Shown here piece after piece: positions 4,614 to 20,791 of a stretch of 21,872 nt of DNA. How positions within the stretch are numbered: position 1 is the first letter of the stretch; each line of letters begins with the position of its first letter. Location: NCBI GenBank assembly GCA_031409335.1, contig JANNWY010000235.1, forward strand, positions 1-21,872, in the 5' to 3' direction. This DNA comes from Chthoniobacteraceae bacterium (GTDB taxonomy: Bacteria; Verrucomicrobiota; Verrucomicrobiia; Chthoniobacterales; Chthoniobacteraceae). The position numbers and the translations under genes are program-made. The notes under the pieces were generated by a model. That model worked only from the letters and a program-made list of their open reading frames with translations. It did not search any database and was not told the DNA's origin.

Positions 4614-4806
4614 GTCTGCGCGATTCGGTCCGCGCCGGTATCCCACGCGAAAGTGAGTGGCTTTTACGGCGGCGAGGCTCACGGCCGGGCCCGGTTCCGC
4701 CTTCTCCTGAAGGCGCTCCTTTGCCACCTCGGCATTCGGGGTGCGGGGAGTTTTGCCTCGCCTCCGCCGCACGCTTGGCTCAACTTTCCAGCCAATTCTC
4801 CCGGAA

Positions 4807-5556
4807 ATGCCGCTGCCCGATCCGTCATCCTGCGCTCCACAACAGGTGCGCGACTTCGCCACCACCCGTTGGAGCATCGTGCTCCTGGCTGGAGACGAGC
4901 GTTCATCCCGGTCGGGGCAAGCGTTGGAGACCCTCTGCCGGTCGTATTGGTATCCCCTTTACTCCTTTGTGCGGCGGCAGGGACACGATACTCACACGGC
5001 ACAAGATTTGACCCAGGAATTCTTCTCAAGGCTGCTGGCTGGACATGGACTCGAGACCGTGAACCCCAGCAAGGGCAAGTTTCGCTCATTCTTGTTAGCC
5101 TCGTTGAAGCATTTCCTGGCGAATGAATGGAACCGCTTGCAGACGCAAAGGCGTGGGGGTGGCCAGCTCCATTTCTCCCTTGATGCCGCCTCCGCGGAGG
5201 AACGCTATCGACTGGAGACAGCAGACGAGCTGACGCCGGAGAAGGTATTTGAGCGTCGCTGGGCGGAGACCGTGATCGACTCGGTGACTCGGCGGCTGGA
5301 GGAGGAATACATGGCAGCGGGCATGGTGAAGCGCTTCGAGGAGTTAAAAGGATTCCTGCTCGGCAGCTACGAGCCCACCTCCTACTCGGACGCCGCCGGG
5401 CGCTTGAATATCTCGGATGGCGCGGTGCGCACAGCCATCTATCGAATGCGCCAGCGTTATGGGGAATTGTTCCGCGCCGAGATCGCCGACACCGTGAATG
5501 GCCTGCGGGAAATGCAGGAAGAGGTTCGACATTTTTTGAAGGCGCTGGCGGGATGA
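4807..5556 (+). CDS. ECF-type RNA polymerase sigma factor of the kinase-associated PVC type
   Basis: N-terminal FATTRWSIVL, region 2 ALETLCRSYWYPLYSFVRR...AQDLTQEFF...KGKFRSFLL, PEKVFERRWA, region 4 SYSDAAGRLNISDGAVRTAIYRMRQRY. ATG 4807 preferred over GTG 4741. Confidence 0.92.
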   Translation: MPLPDPSSCAPQQVRDFATTRWSIVLLAGDERSSRSGQALETLCRSYWYPLYSFVRRQGHDTHTAQDLTQEFFSRLLAGHGLETVNPSKGKFRSFLLASLKHFLANEWNRLQTQRRGGGQLHFSLDAASAEERYRLETADELTPEKVFERRWAETVIDSVTRRLEEEYMAAGMVKRFEELKGFLLGSYEPTSYSDAAGRLNISDGAVRTAIYRMRQRYGELFRAEIADTVNGLREMQEEVRHFLKALAG

Positions 5557-5572: not shown

Positions 5573-8500
5573 GTGAGACCCGATGCGTTAGACTCCCAGT
5601 GCCCAAACTGCGGAGCGGTGGTGGCGTGGAGCGCCGTGGCGGGGCTTTGCCGCAAATGCCTCCTGCGCGGATTGATGGGTGAGGACCGTCCGACGGCGGC
5701 TGGGTTAGACATCTCTTCGAGTCCCATCGCTTCGTTCGGCGACTACGAGCTGCTCACCGAGATCGCCCGCGGTGGGATGGGCGTAGTCTATAAGGCCCGA
5801 CTGACCAACCTGAACCGCATCGTCGCGCTCAAGATGATTCAGGCGGGCCGGCTGGCGACCGATGCCGAAGTCAAACGTTTCCGCATGGAAGCCGAGGCTG
5901 CCGCACACTTGGAACACCCGAACATTGTCACGATTTACGGCGTCGGCGAGCACGAGGGCCTGCTTTACTTCACCATGCGGTTCATCGACGGCCCGAACCT
6001 GGCCCAGGAAATCGCGCGCCACCCCTCGCGCTTCGCGCCTTCGGAAATCGCGAGCCTTCTCATCAAAGTCTCCCGGGCCGTTCACTATGCCCATCAGCGC
6101 GGCATCCTGCATCGCGACCTCAAGCCGGCGAACATCCTCATTGATGCGCAAGGCGAACCGCACATTACGGACTATGGGTTGGCGAAGCAGCTTGAAAGCG
6201 CGAGCGATCTGACCCTGAGCGGCGCGGTGATCGGCACGCCGAACTATATGGCACCGGAGCAAGCCGCGGGGAAAAATAAGCAAGTTACCACGGCGTCGGA
6301 TGTCTATAGCCTCGGAGCTATCTTCTACGAACTGCTCGTCGGCTGCCCGCCGTTCCATGCTGAAACTCCGCTGGAAACGATGCGTCAAGTAGTCGAGCAG
6401 GAGCCTCGCCTTCCCCCTGCTGCGCGCATCGACCGCGACTTGGAAACGATCTGCTTAAAATGTTTGCAGAAAAGTCCGGCGCAACGCTACGCCTCCGCCG
6501 AGGCGCTTGCGGAAGATTTGGAGCGCTGGCTCCGACGCGAACCGATCCGCGCGCGGCCCAGCAATATCTGGGAACATGGCGTCAAGTGGGCCAAACGCTA
6601 TCCCGCCCGCGCCGGGGTCATCCTCCTGGCAGTGCTCGCACCAGCCATCGTCATCGTGGTGCTGATCGTCAGCGGCGCCAAGGTGCGCGGCGAGCGCAAC
6701 GTGGCCACCGCCGCGATGACCCGCGCGGAGGCGGGCGAACGCGCCGCCCGAGAGCGCGCTTATGCGGCGGACATCTATGCGACATTCCAGGCGCTGGCGG
6801 TGGATAACCTGGCGCTGGCCCGGCGGCTTCTGAATGAACACCGGCCTCAAAGAATCACCGATAGCTCTCAACTCTCTCCTGACTTGCGCGGCTTCGAGTG
6901 GCGGCTGCTTTGGGAACGCTCACGCGGCCAGGAAGATTACAGCTTTACCAACCTCACGCGACCTGCCGATTGCCTGTTGTTCGCTCCCGATGGCCGAACG
7001 CTGATTTCCGGAGGCGACGATGGCATTTACCTCTGGGACATCGTCGAGCGGCGGCCACTGGGCCTTTTCCCCGGCCCCGATCCGGGGGTGCCGCCGGACG
7101 ACCCCGCTCTGACCATTGAGAAACTGCGCCCGTTGTTAGACGTCTCGCCCGCGGTGGTGGAGTATCTCAAAGTCAAACCGGGAATCTTGGACTACCTCGA
7201 TGCGTTTGGCCATACCCACCGCACGCGCGGCGTCACGAGCCTTGCGTTGACGCCAGATGGCAACCATCTCCTCGTCGGCAGTGTGGACTTCGTTCGCAGT
7301 TGGAACTTTGCGACGCGCGCGTTCGATTTCGCCATTCCCGAGTCACATGCCACAGTGGCCGTGCCGGCCGCGGGCGACCTGTTCGTCATGGGAAACAATC
7401 AACTCGTGCCTCCCGGTGACGAACGCGAGTCGGCGCACCCGCAGAGTGCGCTCGTGTATAGCTTCACTCAGCGCGGCTTGGTGGCCACACTTCCTGGCTA
7501 TGGCTGGCAAGTGGCCGTATCACCCGATAGCCAGCTCGTGGCCGCCGCCAGCCGGACCAAAGGTTTGGTGCTTTGGCACCCCGCCACGGGGGAAACCGAA
7601 ACGATCAGCAAAGGCCCGTGGTATAATGCGCATCTGGCGTTCTCACCGGACGGAAAAACATTGTTCACGGCTTCGGATTCTGCGGGGCCCAAGCTCACGC
7701 TCTGGGACGTGGCTTCCAAGAGAATCAGAGCGTATCTTCAAGGCGATCACGTTCAGATTGAGACTGTGGCGTGGTCGCCAGTTGGTGGCTACTTTGCCGG
7801 TGGAGGGAGGAATCAGACCATTCAGCTCTGGTGGATACCGCCAGCTGAAACGAACGACGTGTCCTCCGCAGATACGCCCTTTCTTTCCCCACAGATCGTC
7901 CTGCACGGCCACGAAGCCACCGTGACGGCGCTGGCATTTTCTCCCGATGGCCAGTGGCTGGCTTCCGGCGCCAAAGACGATTCGATTCGTCTTTGGGCTG
8001 TCCGCGATGCCATCGCCGCCACCGACAACGATAGTCCAATCTTACAGGGCACAGTCCACGAAATTGGGCTGGATTCCGTCACCGGTTGCCTCTTCGGTCG
8101 GGCAGGGCGGACACTCGCATTGTGGAGTCCCAACCCCGGCCCACCATCACTGCATCCGCTGGCCGGCACCGAGAATCACCTCGCGGCGGGGTTCCTGGCT
8201 CACGGTGCGGGCCTCCTGACGGTGGAGTTGGCGACAAACGGCGCGCCAACCGCGTTTGAAATTCGCCGCCTGCCGGACGGTGCCGTGCAAACCCGGCGCG
8301 AAATGCTCCCGCCGCCGGGCGAGATTCAATCGAAAGCAATGTCAGGCGCAGGCCGTTCCCACCTGGCAGTGGCCCCGAATGGCCAATGGTTCGCGATCCC
8401 GCTATCCTTCCATACTCAACCGTATATCCATGTGTACAGCGTCGCCACGGGAGGGTTCATCACGCGGCTGAAGACACCCCTCGGGCATTTCTTTCATGAC

Positions 8501-9019
8501 GTGCGCGTGTCGCCGGACGGTCGCTGGCTGATCGTCACTGAGCATACCAGGGGTGAAAATACAATCGCGGTTTTCGATACGAGCAATTGGCAGCTTTTCC
8601 GCGCCATGCATTTTCGCAGCGCCGGTGACGATGTGATGGGTGCCGCCATCGATCCCACCAGCCGCCTGATCGCCACGGGCGGGCCTGGCGAGAATTCCAT
8701 CCGCATCTGGGAACTGCAAACGGGCCGCCTGCTGGGACAATGCAATGGCTCCTCCGCTCACACTCCAGTCTGGTCGCCGGACGGTCGCACTCTCGTGACT
8801 CATGATCGTGGCTCGCTCAAATTCTGGAGCACGACCGTCTTCCGCGAACTCGCCGCCCTGCCCACCGACCATGTTCCGCTCGGATTCATCGCCGAGGGCC
8901 GCGCGCTCGTGACGATCAATGCGCCCGGCGAGGTGAAAACCTGGTCGCCCCCCACGCTGGCCGAAATCGACGCCACGCTGGCCGATCCAGCCGCCGCGCC
9001 GCCGAGGCAGGAGCGGTAA
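5573..9019 (+). CDS. Hanks-type Ser/Thr protein kinase with N-terminal CxxC...CxxC motif, one TM helix and C-terminal WD40 repeats
   Basis: CPNC...CRKC; IARGGMGVVY, VALKMI, HRDLKPANIL, DYG, GTPNYMAPEQ, SDVYSLG; TM AGVILLAVLAPAIVIVVLIV; WD40 such as GHEATVTALAFSPDGQWLASGAKDDSIRLW. Confidence 0.95.
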   Translation: MRPDALDSQCPNCGAVVAWSAVAGLCRKCLLRGLMGEDRPTAAGLDISSSPIASFGDYELLTEIARGGMGVVYKARLTNLNRIVALKMIQAGRLATDAEVKRFRMEAEAAAHLEHPNIVTIYGVGEHEGLLYFTMRFIDGPNLAQEIARHPSRFAPSEIASLLIKVSRAVHYAHQRGILHRDLKPANILIDAQGEPHITDYGLAKQLESASDLTLSGAVIGTPNYMAPEQAAGKNKQVTTASDVYSLGAIFYELLVGCPPFHAETPLETMRQVVEQEPRLPPAARIDRDLETICLKCLQKSPAQRYASAEALAEDLERWLRREPIRARPSNIWEHGVKWAKRYPARAGVILLAVLAPAIVIVVLIVSGAKVRGERNVATAAMTRAEAGERAARERAYAADIYATFQALAVDNLALARRLLNEHRPQRITDSSQLSPDLRGFEWRLLWERSRGQEDYSFTNLTRPADCLLFAPDGRTLISGGDDGIYLWDIVERRPLGLFPGPDPGVPPDDPALTIEKLRPLLDVSPAVVEYLKVKPGILDYLDAFGHTHRTRGVTSLALTPDGNHLLVGSVDFVRSWNFATRAFDFAIPESHATVAVPAAGDLFVMGNNQLVPPGDERESAHPQSALVYSFTQRGLVATLPGYGWQVAVSPDSQLVAAASRTKGLVLWHPATGETETISKGPWYNAHLAFSPDGKTLFTASDSAGPKLTLWDVASKRIRAYLQGDHVQIETVAWSPVGGYFAGGGRNQTIQLWWIPPAETNDVSSADTPFLSPQIVLHGHEATVTALAFSPDGQWLASGAKDDSIRLWAVRDAIAATDNDSPILQGTVHEIGLDSVTGCLFGRAGRTLALWSPNPGPPSLHPLAGTENHLAAGFLAHGAGLLTVELATNGAPTAFEIRRLPDGAVQTRREMLPPPGEIQSKAMSGAGRSHLAVAPNGQWFAIPLSFHTQPYIHVYSVATGGFITRLKTPLGHFFHDVRVSPDGRWLIVTEHTRGENTIAVFDTSNWQLFRAMHFRSAGDDVMGAAIDPTSRLIATGGPGENSIRIWELQTGRLLGQCNGSSAHTPVWSPDGRTLVTHDRGSLKFWSTTVFRELAALPTDHVPLGFIAEGRALVTINAPGEVKTWSPPTLAEIDATLADPAAAPPRQER

Positions 9020-9089
9020 ACCGTGTATCTCCCGCCGTGAGATTCTTCCTCCCCTCCTTGAAAAGACGCTCCCATTGCGGCTGGCGCGC

Positions 9090-9250
9090 TATGGAGTGCG
9101 GTGGCGCCGCAACACCGCTTTGCGGATGGGCCGGAGGCCGCGGCGGCGAGCGCGTGCCGACTCCGAGCGCGCTCCGACTTCGGGCGCGCGTCCCCCCCGC
9201 GGCGCTCCACGCCCTCCAAAAGCGGTGTCGCCACGCCACCGCACTCCATA
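9090..9250. repeat. REP-doublet (REPIN-like) inverted repeat, family 2
   Basis: 32-bp arms 9090-9121 (TATGGAGTGCGGTGGCGCCGCAACACCGCTTT) and 9219-9250 with 3 mismatches; each arm is GGAG plus a GCGGTG...CACCGC hairpin. Confidence 0.88.
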
Positions 9251-9259
9251 ACTCCTCCC

Positions 9260-9325
9260 CAAAAAAAATTTCCCAAAATAGTGAAGAACTATTCCGGGAT
9301 AATCTTTCTGTAATCGGGTGGAATG
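9260..9325 (+). promoter_or_regulatory. AT-rich candidate promoter region for the secreted-protein genes
   Basis: A8 tract followed by GTGAAGAA...TCTGTAAT; the most AT-rich patch upstream of the 9571 gene. Sigma specificity not determined. Confidence 0.3.
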
Positions 9326-9570
9326 AATGCCTCATCTCCACATCACGATCGCCCCGGCAACCCCGAGCACGGGTCCGGAAATGCGTCTAAGCAGCTCACC
9401 TCGGAAATCTGCCTTCGGCGGCCCGGCGTCGCGTCCACACCGACAAAAGAAACACGAGGAACTCCGCACACTTTTGCAACCCAGACGGCGCAATCCCGAA
9501 GAAATCAGTGGAAGCCGTTCGCAAAATCAAAGCGGTCAGCCACCAAACTTCACCAATCCAGCAAGCTATC

Positions 9571-12500
9571 ATGAAAACCTTTTCCCATCTCCGCGTCCTC
9601 CGGTTCGCCATTCTCGTCGGAATCACCATTTCCGTGGCGGCACAGGCGCAATGGAGCGTCAGCACCTATAGCGCCGGTGGCACATTGATTAGCAATCTCG
9701 CCGACGCCGATCGCGTCATCAGTGGCGAAGGTCGGGCTTACCTTTCCTCCGCGAACTACCCTAATTCCAATACTCAGGATAACGGTACCTTGGGACTCCC
9801 GTTGTTCGGTCTCGGCACACAAGTTTTCGGTTTGCCCGCGGTTGACAACGATGACTTCGTCTTTCAAGCGAGAGCCAATTTCACCGTCACCACGGCCGAC
9901 TTTTACACGTTTTCCAACTACACCAATGACGGGTCGCGGCTCCTTTTCAGCATCAACGGCGGCAATTTCGCCCCCCTTATAGTTGACGATGTCGTTTCCG
10001 GAGGTCACATAGTAAATAGTCCCGCAAACTTTTTTGTCAGCGAACCAGACCATTACCCTAGAATGGACATGGTTCGAGCGCAACGGCGGTGCATCAGGTG
10101 AGACTTGGTACACCTCGACTCACAATATGTTTGCTGCCCTTTGGGGCACTCCAAGCGGGCTGACGCTTCAGCCGCCCGGCATTACGGGGACCGTTTATAA
10201 AGCTAGAACGACCGGAAACCCGGGCACCAACTCCAGCGGCCCGGACAATCTCGCGGAAGCGGATGCTTACCGGACCTTTGGCGACTATCGAGGTTCCGCT
10301 TCGTATCCGGTAATCAATCTGGGTTCCGGGGGGCGCGTCGGCGGCGACAGTGCTTTGCCGCTGGGAACCCCCAGCGATCACTTCGTCGTTTTGGCCATGG
10401 GGCTGATTCACGTCGCTCCTGGCCAGGAGGGCAACTGGACCTTCTTTACGAACAGCGACGATGGTTCCCGGCTCCGGATCAACGGGGTGAATGTGATCCT
10501 CGATAACTTTGTCCAAGGACCACAAGATTCCGCGTATGCCTCCTTCAATTTTCCGGTCGCAGGCGATTACCCGGTCGAATATACCGGATTCGACAAGGAC
10601 GGCGGCGAATCCTTTGAAGTGTGGTACTATCCGGGCCTTCCCAATTCCACCGTAAAGGGTCAAGGAATCCCGGGCCCAAATCTGCATCTGCTCGGAGATC
10701 CCGCCGGACCTCTTGCTGTGATCCAAACGCCGCCTGCGCCTGGTTTGCCTTTCCCTGGACTGAATCTTGAATTCACCACGGTGGGCGATCCTGGCAATCC
10801 CGCCGACACTGTGGATGGCGATGGGGCCACACCCGGCGTGCAGAACTACGGTGCCGTGGCTTATCCGTTTCTCATCGCTACCACGGAGGTCACGAATCAC
10901 GATTACGCGGCCTTTCTGAATGATGTGGACCCCTCTGGTTTGAACAACCCATTCGACGTCTGGAATGACGACATGGGCGGGACCGGTCCGAATAACGTCG
11001 CAGACGGTTGGATCGCACGGGATACAGCTTCCGGTATTGCCAACGGGAAACACTACTCGATCGCGCCGGATTCGTCGGTTAGCCCTTCGGCGACGTATCC
11101 CAACCGCCCCGTTGTCCATCTCACCTTCCTCTCCGCGATGCGTTTCGCAAACTGGCTGCACAACGGTGGACCGGGGGCATTTGGCCAGTTGGGTAACAGC
11201 GCGATGAATACTGGGGCTTACACTTTGACCGGGAATGTCATCACGGACGGAAATGCCGCGCGCAATGCACCAGCCAAATACTGGATTCCCAATGGAGATG
11301 AATGGTACAAGGCGGCCTACTACGATCCGACCCGCAAACCTTCCACGAACAGCACCGGACGGACGGGCAGCAACCCGGGGAATTACTGGGTTTATCCATA
11401 CCTCGCAGATAACAACCCGTATTCGGTGTTTGGTCCGCCGTTTCAGAAAATGCTGCTTCTGTCGAACAGCAAAAATATCTATAACACTATTGATGTGAAG
11501 TCCTACACGGACGGCACCAGCCATTACGGGACGTATGACCAGGGAGGCAATGCCGCCGAATGGATTGAAAATACGATCTTCGCCCCTACCCGACGGGGTG
11601 CGCGTGGCGGCGGCTACAGTAGCCAAGGCACTGACGACACGCCGAGCATTCGGTCCATAGGTCCTGTCTATTTTCTCGATCCGGCGAACTATCTGCCCGC
11701 CTCGGGACCCGAACCGTACCCAATCGGATTTCGCGTCGCGGCGACGGCGAGCGCGCAACCGCTGGGGTGTGTGAAGCCACCCTCAAACATGGTTTTGTGG
11801 CTGCCGTTCGACGAGTCATCTGGCTCAAAGACTAAAAATGCCGTCACCGCGTCGCCCGCGTACGATGGCACGCTGATCGGCAGCCCGGCTCATATCGCCG
11901 GCTATGTCAGCAACGCCCTGCAATTCGACGGTGCCACCCGCTATGTGAGCGTGCCGGACTATCCGGCGATCAACTTTGGAACGTCAACATCGGCTGCTCC
12001 CGATTTTTCGGTGGATGCCTGGATCATGCGGGATGCGAACGTGAACGGAGTGCAATCCATCATTGACAAGCGGGAGCAAACCCCTCCCGAAGGCGGCTAC
12101 CACATGTATCTATTTGACAACCGATTGGGGTTCCGGATCGCGGGCAATAACGTGGCGGGCAACTTCAACCTCCCAGGCACCATCCCCCTTGGGGTTTGGA
12201 CGCATGTCGCAGTGACCGTGAAGCGCAACGATGTTGCAGGCGGGCGTTTCTATGTCAACGGCGCGGAACAAGCGGCCAGCCGTTTTGACACCATCCCTTA
12301 CAACGGTTCCATGACCAACACGCGGCCCTTTGTCGTCGGTTCACGGTCCTCCTCGATCTCGGGGTTCATTCGCGCGAAGATTGATGAAGTGGAGGTATTC
12401 TCCCGTGCTCTCACTCCTGGGGAGGTAAAATCCATCTACGACGCCGGCATTGCCGGGAAGTGTCTGTATTCCTGTAGCGTCTCGCCGGTGTTGACCTTTG

Positions 12501-13753
12501 GCGGCGCCTCGCCGTCCACGATCACCGCCACTGCGCAAATCTGCAACGCTTCGGGAGTCGATCAGACATTCACATATTCGTTCGGGCCAGTGCGCAGAGG
12601 CCCGGGCTGCACTCGAAATGGTCCAACGATCTTCAGCCCCCCCTCGGGCACCATAACGGTGCTGGCTGGCAAGTGCGAATCGTTTCCCGTAACGATCAAC
12701 CGTCCTTTGGATTTCAACGGATCCAGTCAACTGCCCTTCTATAAAGTGACCGCCTGCTACGAGATGGTCCTGTCCAACGCGGCGGGGACGGTGGAATTCT
12801 CCCGATGCCGTGGGACGCTGGTGGACAGCAATGCTGTGCTCAAGGGCGGAGATTTGAATGGAGGCGGACTGATTGGCCTTTCGGCCTGTGACCTCATGGC
12901 TGGGTGCGCAGTTTCTGTCCAGCTCAAGGTCACGAACACGACTGGGTCTGCGATTTCTCAAATGAAGTATGAGTTCCTTGTGCTGCGTGAAGACAACACC
13001 GCGGATGTGCAAGCGGTTTCCCTCAACAACGAAGCTCCGGGAACTTCGGTGGCCGGCACCCTCTCACTGGCGGCGGGCGCATCGACCGACATTCCAGTGA
13101 ACGCCATGTTTATGCAGAACGATCCGCTGCACACTTACACGCTATTGATGCTGGCCGACATGGGAGGAAACGGCGTGATGCATCCTTTCGGCTCTTACAG
13201 ACTCGAAAACCTGGTTCTTCCCAATCCGCAACTGCAAAGCGCAGTTTCCCGAAAGACTCACGGAGCGGCCGGCATCTTTGATATTTCACTGCCACTCACT
13301 GGCAGTCCCGGAATCGAGTGCCGCGGGAGCGGTCCCGCTGGCACTCATACCCTTATCCTGACCTTTAATAACGAGATCCTCACCGGCAGCGTCAGCGTGA
13401 CGGCTGGCACCGGATCGGTCAGCGGAGCCCCGACGTTCAATTCCGTTACCAATGAAATGACGGTCAATCTGACCGGAATCAACAATCAGCAGGCGATTAC
13501 CGTGACCTTGAGCGGAATGAAGGACATTGCGGGCCAGGCTTTGGCGAACACAAGTGTGACGATGGGATTTTTGTTGGGAGACGCGAATGGGAATGGTGTG
13601 GTGAATTCTACTGACATCGTCCTGGTAAAGGCGCAATCTGGAGCCACAACTGATGCGAACAACTTTCGGCGTGACGTCAATGCGAGCGGCGGAGTAAACA
13701 TTACCGACGTTGTCCTGACCAAGTCCCGCTCCGGGGCCAGTTTGCCACCTTAG
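9571..13753 (+). CDS. Secreted multidomain protein split by a +1 frameshift at a T6 run (10030-10035): signal peptide, 2 x PA14, FGE-sulfatase/SUMF1-like domain, LamG-like domain, Cys-rich beta domains, C-terminal beta domain + type I dockerin (1393 aa if joined)
   Basis: Signal MKTFSH...VAAQA; PA14 motifs YTFSNYTNDGSRL and WTFFTNSDDGSRL; FGE-like TEVTNHDYAAFLN, DEWYKAAYYDP, DQGGNAAEW, RGG, IGFRVA; LamG WTHVAVT, FYVNG, IDEVEVFSRALT; dockerin GDANGNGVVNSTD / DVNASGGVNITD. Removing one T fuses the track ORFs 9508-10101 and 10034-13753 within PA14 number 1. Confidence 0.85.
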
Positions 13754-13800
13754 CAGATTTTGACCGAACTATTTCCCAACCACATCGACTCCCAATACCC

Positions 13801-14487
13801 ATGAAACCAACAAATAAAACCGTCCACAAACCCATCATCAATTCACTCCGACTTTGCGCCTTGCTGGCAGTTTGCGCGACATCTGCGGTTGCGCAGGTGG
13901 GAACGGCCGTCATCAGTCTCAAAGATACCAACGGCGATCCCGGCTCGGGCACAGTCGTCCCTGGTGAAACCTTTACTCTCTGCGTCTTTCTAACCTCCGA
14001 TCAAGAAACTTTCGGTTTGACCTATTTCCTGGAAACGCTCGAACCGGGGTGCAGTGGTCGCTTTCAAATCGAGGGTCGAAACACAACGAATTCGATTTAC
14101 ACCGATGTCACAAATTCGAATTCTTCAATCTTGGCACCCACCAATGCCTTGTTGGACCCGCGGACCGGGTCGCCCTCCGGTGCGGGTGGAGATCTCGGTG
14201 CGAATTCTTTTCCGCTCTTTGCACCACCGAACATTGAGCAGCTCGTCGCGTGCTTCACGATTAAAGATTTAGGTGGGCCGGAGGCGGGATTTTGCACGAT
14301 CCAAGTCGCATTGAAAGGCGTAACAGGCCGCGATGCCAATGGCGACCCTTACGACCTCCAGACCCAGAACATCGCGACGACAAACTACCGGGTTGAAATC
14401 GTGCCGGAGCCATCCGTCCCGATGTTACTATGCTTTGCAGCGGCATTTCTTGGTGCCGCGCGTCGCAAAGGCATTGCTAAGTGCTGA
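13801..14487 (+). CDS. PEP-CTERM sorting-domain protein with a single cohesin-like beta-sandwich body
   Basis: Signal peptide ending SAVA; C-terminal VPEPS + hydrophobic helix + RRK (14401-14484). Body has a VVPGETFTLCVFL...GLTYFLE...LVACFTI...GFCTIQV strand pattern reminiscent of cohesins (fold is inference; PEP-CTERM is clear). Confidence 0.85.
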   Translation: MKPTNKTVHKPIINSLRLCALLAVCATSAVAQVGTAVISLKDTNGDPGSGTVVPGETFTLCVFLTSDQETFGLTYFLETLEPGCSGRFQIEGRNTTNSIYTDVTNSNSSILAPTNALLDPRTGSPSGAGGDLGANSFPLFAPPNIEQLVACFTIKDLGGPEAGFCTIQVALKGVTGRDANGDPYDLQTQNIATTNYRVEIVPEPSVPMLLCFAAAFLGAARRKGIAKC

Positions 14488-14583
14488 GGAAACCTTGCTT
14501 TGGTTGAGTTCTGTTCAAGCAAACTTTAACCCTCGTGCTGCGTCCGCGCGAAACGCGGGAGCCGGGTCGATTTGTGAAACTAC

Positions 14584-14975
14584 TCACTTCAAAATCACCC
14601 CATCCCGCAGCACGCGCAGCACGAGTTCCTCGAACGGCGTCGCGGTGGTGACCTGCGCGTAGCCGACTCCGCGGCGCAGGCAGTAGGCTTCGGCTCCGGC
14701 GACGAAGGCGTCGATTTCGCGTTCATATCGGCGCAGCAGCGCATCGTTGGCGGTGACATCGAAGACCTCGCCGGTTTCCGCTTCGACGGGCCGCAGATCG
14801 CCGCTTTCGCGCACGCGCAATTCGGCGGGGTCGCGAGTTTGGATGAAGTGGACTTCGGACTGGTGGTAGCGGAGGAGGGCGAGAGCTTCCTCGTCGCCGG
14901 CCGTGTCGAAAAGGTCGGTGATGAGGAAGGTGAGGCTGCGGCGTTTCATGCGCTGGGAGAAGCCATGAGCCCTGA
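14584..14975 (-). pseudogene. C-terminal fragment of a DUF58 (MoxR-associated, vWA-like) protein
   Basis: KRRSLTFLITDLFD...LALLRYHQSEVHFIQTRDPAE...GDLRPVEAETGE...YCLRRGVGYAQVTT matches the DUF58 C-terminal half; the conserved N-terminal half is absent and upstream DNA is a REP hairpin. The 5' boundary is approximate. Confidence 0.75.
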
Positions 14976-15032
14976 GTTTGAGCGACGGGTGCCGGTCGTA
15001 CTTTGGCTCGCGGTGAGGCGGCTGATGCGGAA

Positions 15033-15204
15033 TTCCGGGTAGCACGTTTGTCCCGAGCGTTGGCGAAGGCGTCCCGCCTTCGTGGATTTTCCTGCGGTGC
15101 CAGCAAACCCGGGCAAGATCATTTCCTCTGCAATTCACGCAGGAGAAAGTTCGTTTCGGCGAGGACGCCGAAACCAACGCTCGGGACGAGCGGACTACCT
15201 GGAA
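15033..15204. repeat. REP-doublet (REPIN-like) inverted repeat, family 3, two hairpins per arm
   Basis: Outer arms 15033-15063 and 15174-15204 (26/31 match, GTAG near each outer end); inner hairpins CGAAGGCG-TCC-CGCCTTCG and TTTCGGCG-AGGA-CGCCGAAA. Confidence 0.85.
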
Positions 15205-15217
15205 CCTCAGCGGCCCG

Positions 15218-18200
15218 CTAATTTCCGATCACGCGCAGGCGGATGAAGCGATGCATTCCGCCGGGGCTCGCTTCGGTGTCACGGCGCGTGATGGTTTCGC
15301 TGCCGTCGCCATTGTTGACGGGCACGCCGACTGCGACGCCTGCGCCGAAATTCCACGTACCGGGAATCGCGGCGGTGTCGGCGAAATTTTGCAGCGAGAT
15401 CGCCGCGAGATTCCGGCGGTGGCGCAGCGTGAGATAAGGGCCGGTGCCGCTGTGCATTTCGAGGGTGGTGACGATTGCGCCCATCGCGTCGGTGGCGAGG
15501 GGATTCAGGCCGAGTGCCCATTCCCAGAAGTTGGTGAGGCCGTCGGAATCCGCATCCGCGCCGGGCGTGCCGACATTCGGATCGGTGAGCTGCGTGGGCG
15601 TGAAATGCTGCGCGAGCCATGCGCCGAACGAGAGCAGCGTCGGCGTGCCGATCGAGCCGCCGATCGCGCTGGCCTGCCAGTTTTGTGGATCGTCGGCAAA
15701 GGCGAGCGCGTTGACCCGTTCGAGTGCGCGGCCATTTGCGGCGACTGCGGGCCACGGCGCGATGTTGTCGTAGGTCACCGCATCCACGTCGATGTAGGGC
15801 ACGGTGATTTGGCTGAGGTCGTTGAGATACGGCACGCCCGGTTTTCCGAGTGACACGCGCTCGCCGCCGTTGTTGAGCGCGCCGGTGAACGGGCCGTGAA
15901 TCGCCACCGCGCCGGGCACATTGTATTTCGCGGAAAAAGTGGCGGGCGCGATCGGTGCGAGCAGGATGACCTGGCGTGGTTGGAGGGTGAGTCCCGCGGG
16001 CAAATTGTAGCCGATGCCATCGACTTTCCAGGTGTTGCCGGGATTCGCCGGATCGAAAAGCGGCACGGGCTGATCGCTCACGTTGCGCAGCTCGATGTAT
16101 TCATCATTGCCTGCGAGCGGATCGATCATGAGTTCGCTGATGACGATCGGGCCGATCTTCGGACCGGCATTTGCGGAGCCGAAAGTCGGCGTCTGTTGCA
16201 GGGTGAAAAACGCGGTGTTTTGCGAATTCAGATGCCGCCCGAAGGAGACGCCGGCCTCGGATGCGCCGAACTGCACGACGTGTTGATAGCCGGTGAGCGC
16301 ACCCGTCACGTCGCCGCTGGAAAGCACGGTTTCATCACCATTCGCGCTGAACGCAAACGGGTTCGCGCCGGAGTTGAAAGTGCTCTCCGTCAGTTCAAGA
16401 AATCCGCCCGCCGCGATGATGCTGCCCGCGGGAAAGCGGTATTTCTGCGGCAGCGCCACGTCGTCGCTCAGCCACCAATCGCTCACATCCACGGCGCTGG
16501 CGTTGGGATTGAAAAGCTCGACGCGATCGACCGATGGCGCGGAGTTTGCCAGCACTTCATTGATCAAGATTGGGAGCGTCGGCGGCGCGGGATCGTCCGC
16601 GCCGGGCGAGCCGCCGGGGTTCGTGCTCGCGCGCCAGTTGCTGGCGTTGTTCGGCGCGGGGATGGCGTTCGCATTCACCGGGACAAGCGACGGGCCGCTG
16701 CCGTCGGGCGCGATCGGCCACGGCGATTCATCGAGCCACGCCACGCTGAAGACAGTGCGGTTCGCGGCGTCGGTGAGTGTGAGCGTGTCGCCGCCATTCG
16801 CGAGGCTGGAGCCCGCGCCCCACGCATCGAGCAGCGTGACGGCGGGATACTTCGCGGCGAATTGCACCGCGTTCCGCGCGATCGTTTTGAACCCGCCCGC
16901 GCCAATGCTCGCGCCAGCGGGAAATTCATACGCGATGCCGGAGGTGAATTTCATCCCGAACAGATTCACCGCCTGCGCGCCGACGTTCTTGATCTCGATG
17001 AATTCGTATTCATCGCCGTTCACCGCGCCATTGTCTGGCGGGTGGTACATCACCTCGGTGATGAGCAGCGAGGGCACGACGCCCGTGTCGAAAAGCGCCT
17101 CGACCAGCGGGCTCCACACGCCGCCCGTGCTGCGCACGCGCGCCTTCACGATGGTTGGCGCATTGATCGTCACAGCCGTCCCCGCCGTGCCCTGGATCGC
17201 GCCGCCCTCCGCGCGCGGATCGCGTCCGTCGATGGTGAAATAGACGGTCCCCGATCCATTCAGATTGGTGATCGTGAGCGCGAAACCCGGCGCGACATTT
17301 CCACCAAAAGTGCTGAACGTCGGCGCGAGCACCGCGGGCCACAGCCCCTCCGCCACGAGATGCGCCTGCACAAACGCGCCGCCCGCCACGTCATCCGTGT
17401 AGCCATTGAAGAGCACATTCCGCCGGCTCGGCGTATTCGTCGCGCCGCTGGTCGTGTAGCGCGTCGCGTCGCCCACGCCGTTCGTCCACGGCGTCACGCG
17501 GTCGTTGAAAGCGGTGCCATTGAGCAGCGGCGTGAATTCCGTCCGCAGGCTGTTTAGCCGAGCGAGGATGCGCGCTTCGGTGAGTGCGCCGTTGTTGAAA
17601 AAATGCTTCTGCAGCCGGTCCGCGTAGAGCTGCTTGAACTCAGGGCTCGCGCGCAAAAGCGTGTAGAGGATGCGGATTCCCTCGTTCAATCCCACGGTGG
17701 TGGGCGCAGTCGTGATGAACGACGCGGTCGTGCCCGCGACGAAGGTATTAGTGCGCACATTCCCGCTGAAATCGCCGAACGCACCCTCGGCATCCCACAA
17801 ATAATAACGGTGCAAGCCGCTCGCGGAGCGCTCGCGCGCGCAGACGTAGTTGTTGTGCGGCCAGTCGCCCGTCACGCCGAAGCCATTCATGATCAGGTAG
17901 TCCACGAAATTGACCATATCGAGCCGTGTCTTCATCGCCTGATGGTTTACGAGCGTGGTCTGCGGGTTGTTGCGGAGGAAGGTGATCATCTCTTGGAAAG
18001 CGAGCCCGTCGCCGCTCGCGATCGTCGTGACCTGGCGCACATCCCACGCGAGATCGCTGCCGTGATGGCGCTGCATGAAGTCTTCGCGCAGGTGCTCGCA
18101 AAGGTTGTAGTAGCCTTTGTAAACGCCGTTCACGTAGAGCGTATTGATGATGCCGACGCTGCCGATCTGGCCGAGATCGACATAGAGGCGCCGCATCAGC

Positions 18201-20791
18201 TCGTCCTCGATGAAGGGATTGTTCGGATCGTTTTTTCCCGCGCGCAGGCGCAGATCGTGGAACTGCGTGACGGTGGTATTGGGGAAGAGCGGGAAATTCA
18301 CCGGATCGCCGCCGAGATCGTCACGGAAGTAAAAGTTGAACGACGGCTTTTGCGTAAAATCCGTCTGGCTCCACGCGCTAGTATTTGGCGACGCGGAGTT
18401 TTGGTTCGTCAGTTTGTAACGCGGCCGCGCGTGGCCGCTGCCCGAGATGCGCATCCCGAATTCGGTATTCAGCGACGGCCGGCCGTCGGGATAGACCAGC
18501 TCCATGATCGCGGGCCGCTCGATGAAACGCCCGCGGTGCAGCGGATTGTCATACGCGGAAAGATCCGCAATGGACGGTGCGCTCGACGCGGCCTGCGTCC
18601 ACACGCTGTTGAAATTCGTCGGCTGCGGCGCGGTGAGCGCGGTGTACGCGCCGCTGACGATCGCCATGACGCCGAACGGCCGGTAGAGCGAACGCTGCTG
18701 ATCGCCAGTGACGCAGAGCGCGGGCACGCTCTTGCGGCTTGCGGGTTCATTGATGAGGTAGGAGCGCGTCGCCGTGGCGGACGGCGTCGCGCCCGTTTTG
18801 AAAGCGCGCGCGCGGATCGATCGCGACGAGTTCACCGAGATCGCCGCCGAATACGCGGTGCCATTCGTCTCCGTCGGCTCCGTCCCGTCGATCGTGAAGC
18901 GGATCGTCGCGCCCGGCGTGAGCGTCGCCAGCGCGACCGTCTGCGTCCCCGTGTAAAAACCCGCGGCGCGATCGAACGTCGGCATTTCCACGATGCCGGA
19001 AAATGTCGCGCCCGCATTCGGCGCGAGCGGCGTCGGCGTCCCGAAGAGCGCGTATTGCCCGCCGCCAGCGCGCCCGTAGCTCTGCGTCGCCGGGAGCGCG
19101 GGCACCGCGATTTGCTGGAGCACCGCGCCAAATTGATTCCGCAGCGTGAGCGTTTCCCCGCCCGCGTTCAGTTTGAAATTCGCGTGCAAATAGCCGCCGC
19201 TCGCCGGTGCCGTGATGTCCGCCCCGTCGCAAACCACCAGCAGATGCCCGCCCGCGGGAATCTGCGTGCCCGCGGGAAAAATCCACTTCGCCGGATCGCC
19301 GAGTTCATCGCTCAACTGCCAGCCATCGAGCAAAACCGCCGCCGCTCCGTCGTTGTGAAATTCCACCCAGTCGAGCTGCGTGTCCGGCGGCTCGGGGTTG
19401 TCTTCGATCGCCTCGTCTTCCGAAACCTCCGGCTCCGACACGCCGACGAAGTATCTCCAAGTATCCGTGAAATTCACGAAGATCGCGCCGCCGCTGCGCT
19501 GGAGCCGGGCGCGCAGGAAAAGGTCCGCGTCGGCAACGGTCAGATTATGCACCTGCACGCCGAGCACGTTCTGGCCGAGCGTCAGCAGCTTTGCGGGTGG
19601 ATCGAGCGTGTAAGTCGTCGAGGTCCCGCCCGCGCGCGCGGCAGTCGTCACGGCATCGTGCGGGGTGAAAGCATTTGCCTCGGCCAGATTCGCGCGCGCC
19701 ACTTCCACGCCATTCACGTAGGCGACGAAGCCGTCGTCATAATCCATCAGCAGTTGCAGCGCCGCCGGGTCCGCGAGGTCCGCCGCGGTCACATTGAAAA
19801 CGATCCGGCAATAAACCGACGGCGTGATGCCGACGACCTGCGCGGTCACATTCGTCCCGAGCGTCACGCCCGCCGGCGGCGTGCCTGCGCCGATCGGTGC
19901 CGCGCCGGAACTCCACGCCGTATCCTGAAAACTCGCCCGGCCCCACTGCACGTTCTGCTTTCCCGAGAGCAGCAACGCCGGATCGTACACGCCGCCCGAT
20001 GGCTCCACGAGTCCGGGGAAATACCGCCACGCCGTGTTGTTCGCGACGAGGGTGACGGGCGACGCGCCGGCGATTCGCAAGTCCGCCTTGAGGAAAAAAT
20101 TGTTCCGATTGTCGATCGCGACGAACGAGCCGTTCCCGCTGTTTCCCGCGGGTTCGTACACCGACGTGGCTTCCCAATAATTCAACGCGTGAATCGCGAT
20201 CACATTCGTCCCGGCCACGAGCCGCGTATTCGCCGGACCCAGCGGCAGCGTGCGCGTCCGCGCATACGGCGTGGATTTATCCTCCGCGTTCGCGGGCGTG
20301 CCAAATGCGGCAAACTGGTCGTGGTAAAGAAACGCGTTAACCGCGCCCGCATTCTGCCGCGCGACTTCGACGCCGTTGATGTAGCAGACAAATCCATCGT
20401 TGAACTGCGCATCCAGCACGAGCGCATCCGTCCGCACCGCATCCGGCCCGGACACGACGAAGGTCTTCCGCAGATAAATCGTTGGCGTCAGATTTTGCAT
20501 CTGCGTCGCCACGTTTGTCCCAAAAGTGGGCGCCGGCGCGACATTCGTGAACGTCCCAAAACCGAACGGTCCCGGCCCCGTTTGCCAGCCCGCGTCGTTA
20601 AAAGCCGTCTCCGTCCACCGCGTCCCAAAGCCAAAACTCGCCACGCCTGCCGCCGACCATTGCAGCGCGCCCTCGGAGCCAGCGGACATCACTTCATTGA
20701 TCACCACATCGGCGCGGGTGAGCTCGGTGGTGAGGAGGAGAAAGAGCGCGATCAATCGCGGTCCAAAGCGGGAGGAGCGGAGGTAAATCAT
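15218..20791 (-). CDS. Large secreted lamin-tail-domain / CotH-kinase protein with galactose-binding-like and Fn3-associated domains
   Basis: Signal peptide; four LTD starts (VVINEVM, LLITEVMYHP, ILINEVLAN, IVISELMIDP); two YxRxxF...(N/D)DGFVxYxNGVEVAR domains; IRFTIDGTEPT and VYFTIDGRDPR Fn3-associated/CHB_HEX_C repeats; CotH motifs LYVNGVYKGYYNLCE, DWPHNN, WDAE; C-terminal DADSDGLTNFWEWALGLNP...FIRLRV. Confidence 0.93.
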   Translation of the reverse strand: MIYLRSSRFGPRLIALFLLLTTELTRADVVINEVMSAGSEGALQWSAAGVASFGFGTRWTETAFNDAGWQTGPGPFGFGTFTNVAPAPTFGTNVATQMQNLTPTIYLRKTFVVSGPDAVRTDALVLDAQFNDGFVCYINGVEVARQNAGAVNAFLYHDQFAAFGTPANAEDKSTPYARTRTLPLGPANTRLVAGTNVIAIHALNYWEATSVYEPAGNSGNGSFVAIDNRNNFFLKADLRIAGASPVTLVANNTAWRYFPGLVEPSGGVYDPALLLSGKQNVQWGRASFQDTAWSSGAAPIGAGTPPAGVTLGTNVTAQVVGITPSVYCRIVFNVTAADLADPAALQLLMDYDDGFVAYVNGVEVARANLAEANAFTPHDAVTTAARAGGTSTTYTLDPPAKLLTLGQNVLGVQVHNLTVADADLFLRARLQRSGGAIFVNFTDTWRYFVGVSEPEVSEDEAIEDNPEPPDTQLDWVEFHNDGAAAVLLDGWQLSDELGDPAKWIFPAGTQIPAGGHLLVVCDGADITAPASGGYLHANFKLNAGGETLTLRNQFGAVLQQIAVPALPATQSYGRAGGGQYALFGTPTPLAPNAGATFSGIVEMPTFDRAAGFYTGTQTVALATLTPGATIRFTIDGTEPTETNGTAYSAAISVNSSRSIRARAFKTGATPSATATRSYLINEPASRKSVPALCVTGDQQRSLYRPFGVMAIVSGAYTALTAPQPTNFNSVWTQAASSAPSIADLSAYDNPLHRGRFIERPAIMELVYPDGRPSLNTEFGMRISGSGHARPRYKLTNQNSASPNTSAWSQTDFTQKPSFNFYFRDDLGGDPVNFPLFPNTTVTQFHDLRLRAGKNDPNNPFIEDELMRRLYVDLGQIGSVGIINTLYVNGVYKGYYNLCEHLREDFMQRHHGSDLAWDVRQVTTIASGDGLAFQEMITFLRNNPQTTLVNHQAMKTRLDMVNFVDYLIMNGFGVTGDWPHNNYVCARERSASGLHRYYLWDAEGAFGDFSGNVRTNTFVAGTTASFITTAPTTVGLNEGIRILYTLLRASPEFKQLYADRLQKHFFNNGALTEARILARLNSLRTEFTPLLNGTAFNDRVTPWTNGVGDATRYTTSGATNTPSRRNVLFNGYTDDVAGGAFVQAHLVAEGLWPAVLAPTFSTFGGNVAPGFALTITNLNGSGTVYFTIDGRDPRAEGGAIQGTAGTAVTINAPTIVKARVRSTGGVWSPLVEALFDTGVVPSLLITEVMYHPPDNGAVNGDEYEFIEIKNVGAQAVNLFGMKFTSGIAYEFPAGASIGAGGFKTIARNAVQFAAKYPAVTLLDAWGAGSSLANGGDTLTLTDAANRTVFSVAWLDESPWPIAPDGSGPSLVPVNANAIPAPNNASNWRASTNPGGSPGADDPAPPTLPILINEVLANSAPSVDRVELFNPNASAVDVSDWWLSDDVALPQKYRFPAGSIIAAGGFLELTESTFNSGANPFAFSANGDETVLSSGDVTGALTGYQHVVQFGASEAGVSFGRHLNSQNTAFFTLQQTPTFGSANAGPKIGPIVISELMIDPLAGNDEYIELRNVSDQPVPLFDPANPGNTWKVDGIGYNLPAGLTLQPRQVILLAPIAPATFSAKYNVPGAVAIHGPFTGALNNGGERVSLGKPGVPYLNDLSQITVPYIDVDAVTYDNIAPWPAVAANGRALERVNALAFADDPQNWQASAIGGSIGTPTLLSFGAWLAQHFTPTQLTDPNVGTPGADADSDGLTNFWEWALGLNPLATDAMGAIVTTLEMHSGTGPYLTLRHRRNLAAISLQNFADTAAIPGTWNFGAGVAVGVPVNNGDGSETITRRDTEASPGGMHRFIRLRVIGN

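Follow-up and report, generated by a model that had tools for sequence, protein, structure and literature searches.

Tagged gene and putative anchor gene

We examined a 21,872-nucleotide stretch of DNA (hereafter the window), contig C235 of a Chthoniobacteraceae genome (GenBank assembly GCA_031409335.1, contig JANNWY010000235.1), and in it two consecutive genes of the forward strand: a cargo gene (9571-13753), whose product ends in an immunoglobulin (Ig)-like module and a dockerin, and an anchor gene (13801-14487) for a small PEP-CTERM protein with a predicted cohesin fold. The genome measures 7.9 Mb, is 98% complete, and its sequence is present in freshwater-sediment runs, with no RNA run listed among those that contain it; its order, Chthoniobacterales, comprises abundant uncultured soil and sediment bacteria. 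The features on which the argument turns are the following:

13232-13570, forward: Ig-like 'X' module of the cargo gene, about 113 aa, motif xSRKxHG, directly N-terminal to the dockerin and without a Pfam family
13577-13750, forward: dockerin with two calcium-binding loop-helix repeats, at the extreme C-terminus
13801-13893, forward: N-terminal residues 1-31 of the anchor protein, a predicted Sec signal peptide on visual inspection and hydropathy
13894-14400, forward: cohesin-fold domain, assigned from a structure model
14401-14487, forward: PEP-CTERM sorting signal, with VPEP, a hydrophobic helix, and RRK

The small exported PEP-CTERM protein of the initial annotation is well founded: a spacer of exactly 47 bp separates the cargo gene from an open reading frame (ORF) of 228 aa with an N-terminal hydrophobic stretch. 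Its tail scores 19 against a cut-off of 16 for TIGR02595 and 17.4, below the cut-off of 20.7, for Pfam PF07589. With a predicted signal peptide, PEP motif, helix, and basic tail, and with four exosortase matches above cut-off in the genome, the protein has the makings of an exosortase substrate; a PEP-CTERM end is found on 48 of 54 genes of the cohesin family. Between signal and tail lies a body that no Pfam or NCBIfam family names, and the Pfam Cohesin family (PF00963) at its cut-off matches neither the anchor protein nor anything else in its genome. As a single query, the body retrieved one relative in a sequence search and no match in a metagenome scan, and the leads of an Atlas search were all under 0.9, one of them a cohesin cluster. 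Five seed sequences, on the other hand, gathered 618 clusters (50% identity), of which 361 had E <= 1e-10. PF00963 is weakly matched by 4 of 132 relatives (best E 0.0099), and by sequence profile alone two Ruminococcus flavefaciens cohesins rank first, weakly (E 0.04).

The AlphaFold2 model of the body, built from 132 sequences, has a predicted local distance difference test (pLDDT) score of 91.1 and predicts a jelly-roll of cohesin topology across the whole domain. In a VIA comparison with 48,161 solved chains, cohesins or cohesin-like modules fill the first 18 ranks (Z 12.8-9.9, root-mean-square deviation 2.5-3.3 Å over 127-137 residues), and the first non-cohesin fold follows at Z 9.6; cohesins also take the first seven places in Foldseek (E ~1e-6). 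The predicted fold thus supports the earlier suggestion that the PEP-CTERM body is a divergent cohesin and, with a single cohesin per protein, a monovalent one.

At the end of the cargo gene, the duplicated calcium loop-helix repeats (GDANGNGVVNSTDIVLVK and DVNASGGVNITDVVLTK) are equally clear, with a Dockerin_1 (PF00404) score of 27.9 against a cut-off of 22.9 bits. What the initial annotation missed is the Ig-like module in front of them. The last 173 residues of tagged proteins form a conserved unit (39 aligned modules) in which the Ig-like part is kept without exception, Dockerin_1 is matched in 37, and the calcium-ligand positions (1, 3, 5, 9, and 12) are Asp, Asn, Ser, Thr, or Glu in 37-39 modules, in both loops. 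The model of this Ig-dockerin unit (pLDDT 97.7) has two helices in the dockerin part, and two F-hand calcium loops, each with its helix, are predicted. The Ig part best matches Ig and CopC-like domains (Z up to 8.0). For the unit as a whole, Foldseek ranks type II X-dockerins first, though weakly (E 5e-4, template-modelling (TM) score ~0.3), and homology to, or packing like, the X60 module of CipA may at most be surmised from them. With an Ig fold predicted and fixed before the dockerin in 39 of 39 modules, the unit is an X-dockerin-like dyad, comparable to those of types II and III (hereafter the tag). The initial comparison with type I dockerins therefore holds for the dockerin, while for the type the dyad and its weak type II matches point elsewhere.

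The recognition residues read earlier fare likewise. Positions 10, 11, 17, 18, and 22 are those given for dockerin recognition, and S(T/S) at 10-11 with K(R/K) at 17-18 in both repeats marks the type I dockerins of Clostridium (Acetivibrio) thermocellum (PMC3413522). Ser10-Thr11 and Lys17 do stand in repeat 1 of the window dockerin, but its pairs at 10-11 and 17-18 are ST/KA in repeat 1 and IT/KS in repeat 2, a pattern that does not conform to the C. thermocellum code. Only three of the 39 modules have the Ser-Thr pair in their first repeat and two in their second, and the pair is incidental rather than a family trait; more loosely, Ser or Thr fills both positions 10 and 11 in 7 of 39 modules per repeat, and Lys or Arg occupies position 17 in 32 and 29.

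Recurrence of the pair and mirrored dockerin repeats

Within the genome, four X-dockerin genes and three cohesin genes are found, and every cohesin gene lies directly behind a tagged gene. The cargoes of the three pairs are unrelated (the PA14/FGE/LamG protein of the window, a phosphodiesterase, and an M10 peptidase), while the cohesins share 26-35% mutual identity; among 219 PEP-CTERM-like ORFs, just these three follow an X-dockerin gene. The remaining, orphan tagged protein (L003:1258-3108, on G000:C15) has no Pfam match at E 1e-4, and its N-terminus resembles what we take to be planctomycete-type extracellular repeats. The GspD secretin is also matched above cut-off. GC content is 55-58% over 9001-15000 versus 60-66% in the rest of the window, and in other genomes of the same family (n=39) neither cohesin nor tag was found; acquisition of the locus by transfer is likely, to judge from sequence.

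We surveyed 301 genomes of the order, taking as adjacent a cohesin gene at most 650 bp behind a tagged gene on the same strand and counting a split gene once. The cohesin occurs in 34 genomes and the X-dockerin in 46, all 34 being among the 46; in the 255 genomes without the tag, the cohesin profile found no match. Of 55 cohesin genes, 39 are adjacent behind an X-dockerin gene, two are fused with one in a single ORF, and 14 are neither (35 of 51 are adjacent when the four seed genes are left out). With a deeper profile seven further divergent full-length cohesins emerged, six of them adjacent, bringing co-occurrence to 37 of the 46 tagged genomes. The co-occurrence and adjacency anticipated by the initial annotation thus lie far above chance (39/55 adjacent; 34/34 cohesin genomes tagged), with counts that are descriptive only, since kin are not independent. 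The raw tally of that deep profile, A2 (107/301), was discarded, given that A2 contains the PEP-CTERM tail and matches unrelated PEP-CTERM proteins; only full-length matches were kept, and one in G292 was dropped as not a family member. A full-length weak A2 match (E 6e-13) in G310, which has no tag, was not recovered by a body-only profile. Phylum-wide, a 5-sequence profile matched 3 of 401 genomes, all in this order, and none in other orders.

The nearest named records of the tag are Verrucomicrobiae and Chthoniobacterales metagenome-assembled genomes (MAGs). The Ig-dockerin also occurs in betaproteobacterial MAGs (L067, L069, and L071), N-terminally on a 1114-aa protein in L067, in loci that hold no cohesin of this family. 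One island (L039 and L010, on G183:C11) packs four tagged genes into 19.5 kb, three with their own cohesin gene behind and one more cohesin gene near. In three relatives (P0073, P0097, and P0116) the cohesin-family domain is followed by a long acidic low-complexity linker, Cys-Gly-x-Gly, a hydrophobic helix, and a basic end, a possible alternative sorting tail that by resemblance may be akin to Cys-containing CTERM signals.

Tagged proteins outnumber their putative anchors: 14 genomes hold at least 12 of them, and cohesin matches do not exceed five in any genome. As the majority of X-dockerin genes lack a cohesin gene next to them, many clients would have to share few monovalent anchors. The cargo domains (31 proteins scanned) include S8, M10, and M14 peptidases, GDSL lipase, arylsulfotransferase, GH81, Kelch, NHL, and PKD/BNR, besides the phosphodiesterase. 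The 'multi-lectin' cargo of the initial annotation is plausible for the PA14/FGE/LamG protein, but cargoes elsewhere are not generally lectins.

The two dockerin repeats offer a further clue. At positions 10, 11, 14, and 17, repeat 1 equals repeat 2 in 64, 72, 54, and 85% of the 39 modules, versus 29, 25, 18, and 33% when shuffled, even though these positions differ across the family; the 10-11 pair is the same in both repeats of 18 of 39 modules versus 2.5 shuffled. Positions 2, 4, 8, 15, and 16 show no excess of inter-repeat identity. The symmetry persists in 24 dereplicated sequences, in which position 18 shows none, and the window dockerin itself agrees between repeats at 11 and 17 and disagrees at 10. 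Repeat symmetry is considered a mark of dual-mode binding (PMC5301203; PMC12484212), and at family level the dockerin displays it. Codons at matching residues are the same in 41 of 107 cases (0.38 vs 0.34 shuffled). With amino acids mirrored but codons at chance, selection fits better than recent gene conversion, which is rejected as the source because codons were not homogenised; the mirrored recognition positions point to a selected binding face, as far as sequence can tell.

Anchoring model, its rivals and known counterparts

Overall, we suggest that an exosortase-anchored single cohesin binds the Ig-dockerin tag of diverse exported proteins in a calcium-dependent manner and pins them to the cell surface, a reading that we regard as probable. 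Anchor and tagged cargo would be exported via Sec; exosortase would process the PEP-CTERM tail, leaving the cohesin on the cell envelope; type II secretion, the route suggested by the analogy of GlyGly-CTERM proteins (bioRxiv 10.1101/2023.06.07.544157), would probably carry the proteins across the outer membrane; and the calcium-loaded dockerin would dock on the cohesin, with two orientations open to it. Orphan X-dockerin proteins would be served in trans, and the mobile unit would be 'X-dockerin + cohesin gene', joined behind new cargo. A paralog in the same genome (C198:59972-61246) has the same PA14-like pair as the window cargo, with a PEP-CTERM signal directly at its end instead of the tag, which hints at a common destination for the two tails. 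For Chthoniobacterales at large we lean, somewhat less firmly, towards a general two-step surface display, in which a portable tag on tens of hydrolases and adhesins would meet few shared exosortase-anchored cohesin sockets, with pair-specific codes symmetric in both dockerin halves.

Several observations weigh against this interpretation. Nine of the 46 X-dockerin genomes have no cohesin match to a 34-sequence profile, among them G115 and G204 (93-96% complete, 6-11 tagged proteins), and this counts most heavily against an obligate partnership. G131, one of the nine, holds only a fragmented, weakly matching cohesin candidate behind an X-dockerin gene, and 25 loci chosen by their X-dockerin contain no cohesin gene. 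The distance correlation between cohesin and dockerin (0.48) is similar to that between Ig module and dockerin (0.44), and therefore reflects linked descent only, binding being inseparable from linkage by this measure. Positions 7, 9, and 13 of the dockerin are also symmetric, again among kin that are not independent. Cohesin-like modules are only 7-18% identical to the body, with pilin and adhesin domains next (Z 8-9.6), so that a shared fold shows no function; the structural matches of the tag to X-dockerins are weak, as given above; and the cargo gene beside the anchor gene in the window carries a frameshift. The predicted complex of cohesin body and Ig-dockerin, whose median score of 0.31 lies below the 0.32 mark (runs of 0.26, 0.31, and 0.32; three controls at 0.00-0.01), was not counted either way.

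Could the two genes travel together without their products binding, the cohesin-fold protein being glycan-binding or adhesive, and the Ig-dockerin a calcium-binding cap or a tag for another receptor? Such a view would gain from the near-complete genomes in which many proteins are tagged but no cohesin was found, from the 14 of 55 cohesin genes neither adjacent nor fused, and from the adhesin and pilin domains that come next in the fold search. It seems improbable to us, however: the conserved neighbour is predicted to fold like the textbook partner of a dockerin, the link of the pair outlasts the exchange of cargo, recognition positions are mirrored without codon identity, and the cohesin goes unmatched in the 255 genomes that lack the tag. 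It is also unlikely, in our view, that the proteins bind away from the outer surface, the processed cohesin staying in the periplasm or being released to the matrix and holding or ferrying cargo there. The polymer-attacking or adhesin-type cargoes (GH81, S8, M10, M14, PKD, and Kelch) suit the outer surface, the genome encodes a GspD secretin, and floc formation, lost without PEP-CTERM proteins, is cited for surface anchoring (bioRxiv 10.1101/2023.06.07.544157). Nonetheless, the final location of PEP-CTERM proteins has been little tested, those of Akkermansia are more abundant in intracellular than in outer-membrane fractions (PMC4960237), which also counts against surface display itself, and exosortase genes often lie within exopolysaccharide loci (bioRxiv 10.1101/2023.06.07.544157).

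A true multi-enzyme scaffold, cellulosome- or 'planctosome'-like, in which two-module proteins would act as adaptors chaining cargoes to one anchor, we hold to be very improbable. Two ORFs do carry both modules (L046:3712-4818 and, with two X-dockerins, L050:3065-5845), P0078 joins cohesin, dockerin-like repeat, and PEP-CTERM in one protein, and some genomes have at least 12 tagged proteins per 1-5 anchors. Both ORFs are candidate adaptors, the one in L050 less securely, as its first dockerin and its cohesin match overlap. Yet all of the best 150 of 618 relatives have a single matched cohesin stretch, the window genome has three single-cohesin proteins and no adaptor, and no multi-cohesin scaffold was found among longer proteins, this last being weak evidence. 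Nor do the cargoes suggest dockerin cellulases, with one GH81 and no cellulase family among the matches listed for the 31 proteins. 'Mini-cellulosome', as the initial annotation had it, overstates the case, no multi-cohesin scaffold having been found; judged from its genes, the proposed exosortase-cohesin pair is an anchoring system, not a cellulosome.

By analogy, X-dockerin/anchoring-cohesin pairs such as ScaE of R. flavefaciens seem closer than type I enzyme dockerins. ScaE likewise has a single cohesin and a C-terminal sorting signal that is cleaved, and its X-dockerin clients are not all cellulases, a peptidase being one of the exceptions (PMC12484212). The ScaE cohesin (2zf9) matches the window body at Z 8.6; the host here is double-membraned and the signal PEP-CTERM/exosortase, whereas ScaE relies on LPXTG/sortase and peptidoglycan. 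In addition, the fold here lies closer to compact type I-like cohesins (Z 12) than to ScaE, there is no primary scaffoldin, and the anchor-client cassette of two genes is repeated. From C. thermocellum, the cohesins of the single-cohesin surface proteins OlpA and OlpC match the body at Z 11.8 and 11.5, and the type II cohesin/X-dockerin pairs provide the top matches of the tag. Proteins of the OlpA/OlpC type are anchored by S-layer homology (SLH) domains to a Gram-positive wall. Unlike in C. thermocellum, the Ser-Thr code is not kept here, and the X module is CopC-like/Ig and placed otherwise against the dockerin (TM ~0.3). The best body matches of all (2vo8, 2w1n, and 2xdh; Z 11.8-12.8) are non-cellulosomal, from Clostridium perfringens glycoside hydrolases and Archaeoglobus fulgidus; these cohesins sit inside secreted enzymes or archaeal proteins, while here the cohesin is a stand-alone exosortase substrate.

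Cohesin-dockerin tethering of peptidases has also been proposed for another bacterium of the Planctomycetes-Verrucomicrobia-Chlamydiae group, as the 'planctosome' of freshwater Nemodlikiaceae (Planctomycetota; PMC6461901). That hypothetical structure has the lamin-tail anchor of a 2,210-aa protein and an adaptor, and the excerpt describes neither PEP-CTERM nor an X-dockerin cassette (PMC6461901). With the PEP-CTERM/exosortase system our locus shares a tail over the TIGR02595 cut-off and exosortase genes; known substrates are thought to be structural or floc proteins themselves (bioRxiv 10.1101/2023.06.07.544157), whereas the one at this locus would serve other proteins as a docking site. In the open full text of PMC and bioRxiv (subscription papers and supplements lay outside) nothing was found linking dockerin or cohesin with PEP-CTERM; cohesin and exosortase are co-named at separate places in the excerpted text of one review, and 'dockerin' is absent from open literature on Udaeobacter or Chthoniobacter among the matches listed. 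The locus is thus apparently a real, seemingly unpublished variant of cohesin-dockerin anchoring.

Non-cellulosomal cohesin-dockerin pairs have long been without a function, and most PEP-CTERM proteins are without an assigned one; the present pair gives both a concrete test, and a cheap one, with three cognate pairs in one genome, two small soluble domains, and named residues. If surface anchoring holds true, it would explain how secreted proteases, phosphodiesterases, and glucanases are kept from being lost by the cells of a major lineage of uncultured soil and sediment bacteria, and cohesin-dockerin anchoring would reach double-membraned bacteria through exosortase. The anchor would then be a Gram-negative counterpart of sortase-anchored ScaE, a PEP-CTERM protein family would for the first time have a defined biochemical role, and new, possibly orthogonal cohesin-dockerin pairs would become available for surface display.

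Frameshifted cargo gene and its surroundings

The cargo gene itself comprises:

9571-10101, forward: 5' part, with a signal-like N-terminus and most of the first PA14-like domain (PA14 E 0.21, weak)
10030-10035, forward: run of six T, +1 frame change
10034-13753, forward: 3' part, 1239 aa, with no N-terminal hydrophobic stretch
10862-11575, forward: FGE-sulfatase-like domain (PF03781, Pfam E 8.4e-12)
11927-12430, forward: Laminin_G_3/concanavalin-A-like domain (PF13385, Pfam E 4.9e-23)

The frame of the upstream ORF departs from the PA14-like domain at the T run and stops at 10101. The downstream ORF encodes, in order, the rest of PA14-like 1, PA14-like 2 (both PA14-like domains score below the Pfam cut-off), the FGE-sulfatase-like and LamG/ConA-like domains, a Cys-containing region without a family, the Ig-like module, and the dockerin. 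The C198 paralog aligns across the break at 52% identity, and therefore 9571-13753 is one gene, frameshifted. The large secreted protein of the initial annotation thus has its signal-like start and its dockerin end, but in two ORFs offset by one frame rather than in one open frame. The site is identical in contigs of two runs of one study (X2 9725-13487; X3 9615-10255), the single study from which all runs of this check derive, X2 possibly being the source sample. With the same sequence in both, an assembly error is unlikely, and by its sequence the gene is frameshifted in the sampled population. Full-length tagged cargo would therefore need slippage at the T run; slippage or phase variation there is possible, with a single allele only in the contigs. 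The cohesin gene next to it is intact, and its product could still act for the three other tagged proteins of the genome.

Directly upstream on the same strand lie a gene for an extracytoplasmic function (ECF) sigma factor (4741-5556) and one for a Ser/Thr kinase-WD40 protein (5573-9019), which could regulate the cargo gene; a promoter and terminator scan gave a signal no better than chance. On the reverse strand follow a short DUF58 ORF (14584-15177), which matches the second half of its family only, and a gene (15218-20791) for a 1857-aa CotH-kinase/lamin-tail/Fn3 protein with an 'RFIRLRV' tail. A similar 'RFYRL' tail stands in for PEP-CTERM on the cohesin-family protein in L011 and P0033. 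At the contig end, 21370-21864 reads by eye as a transposase-like fragment.

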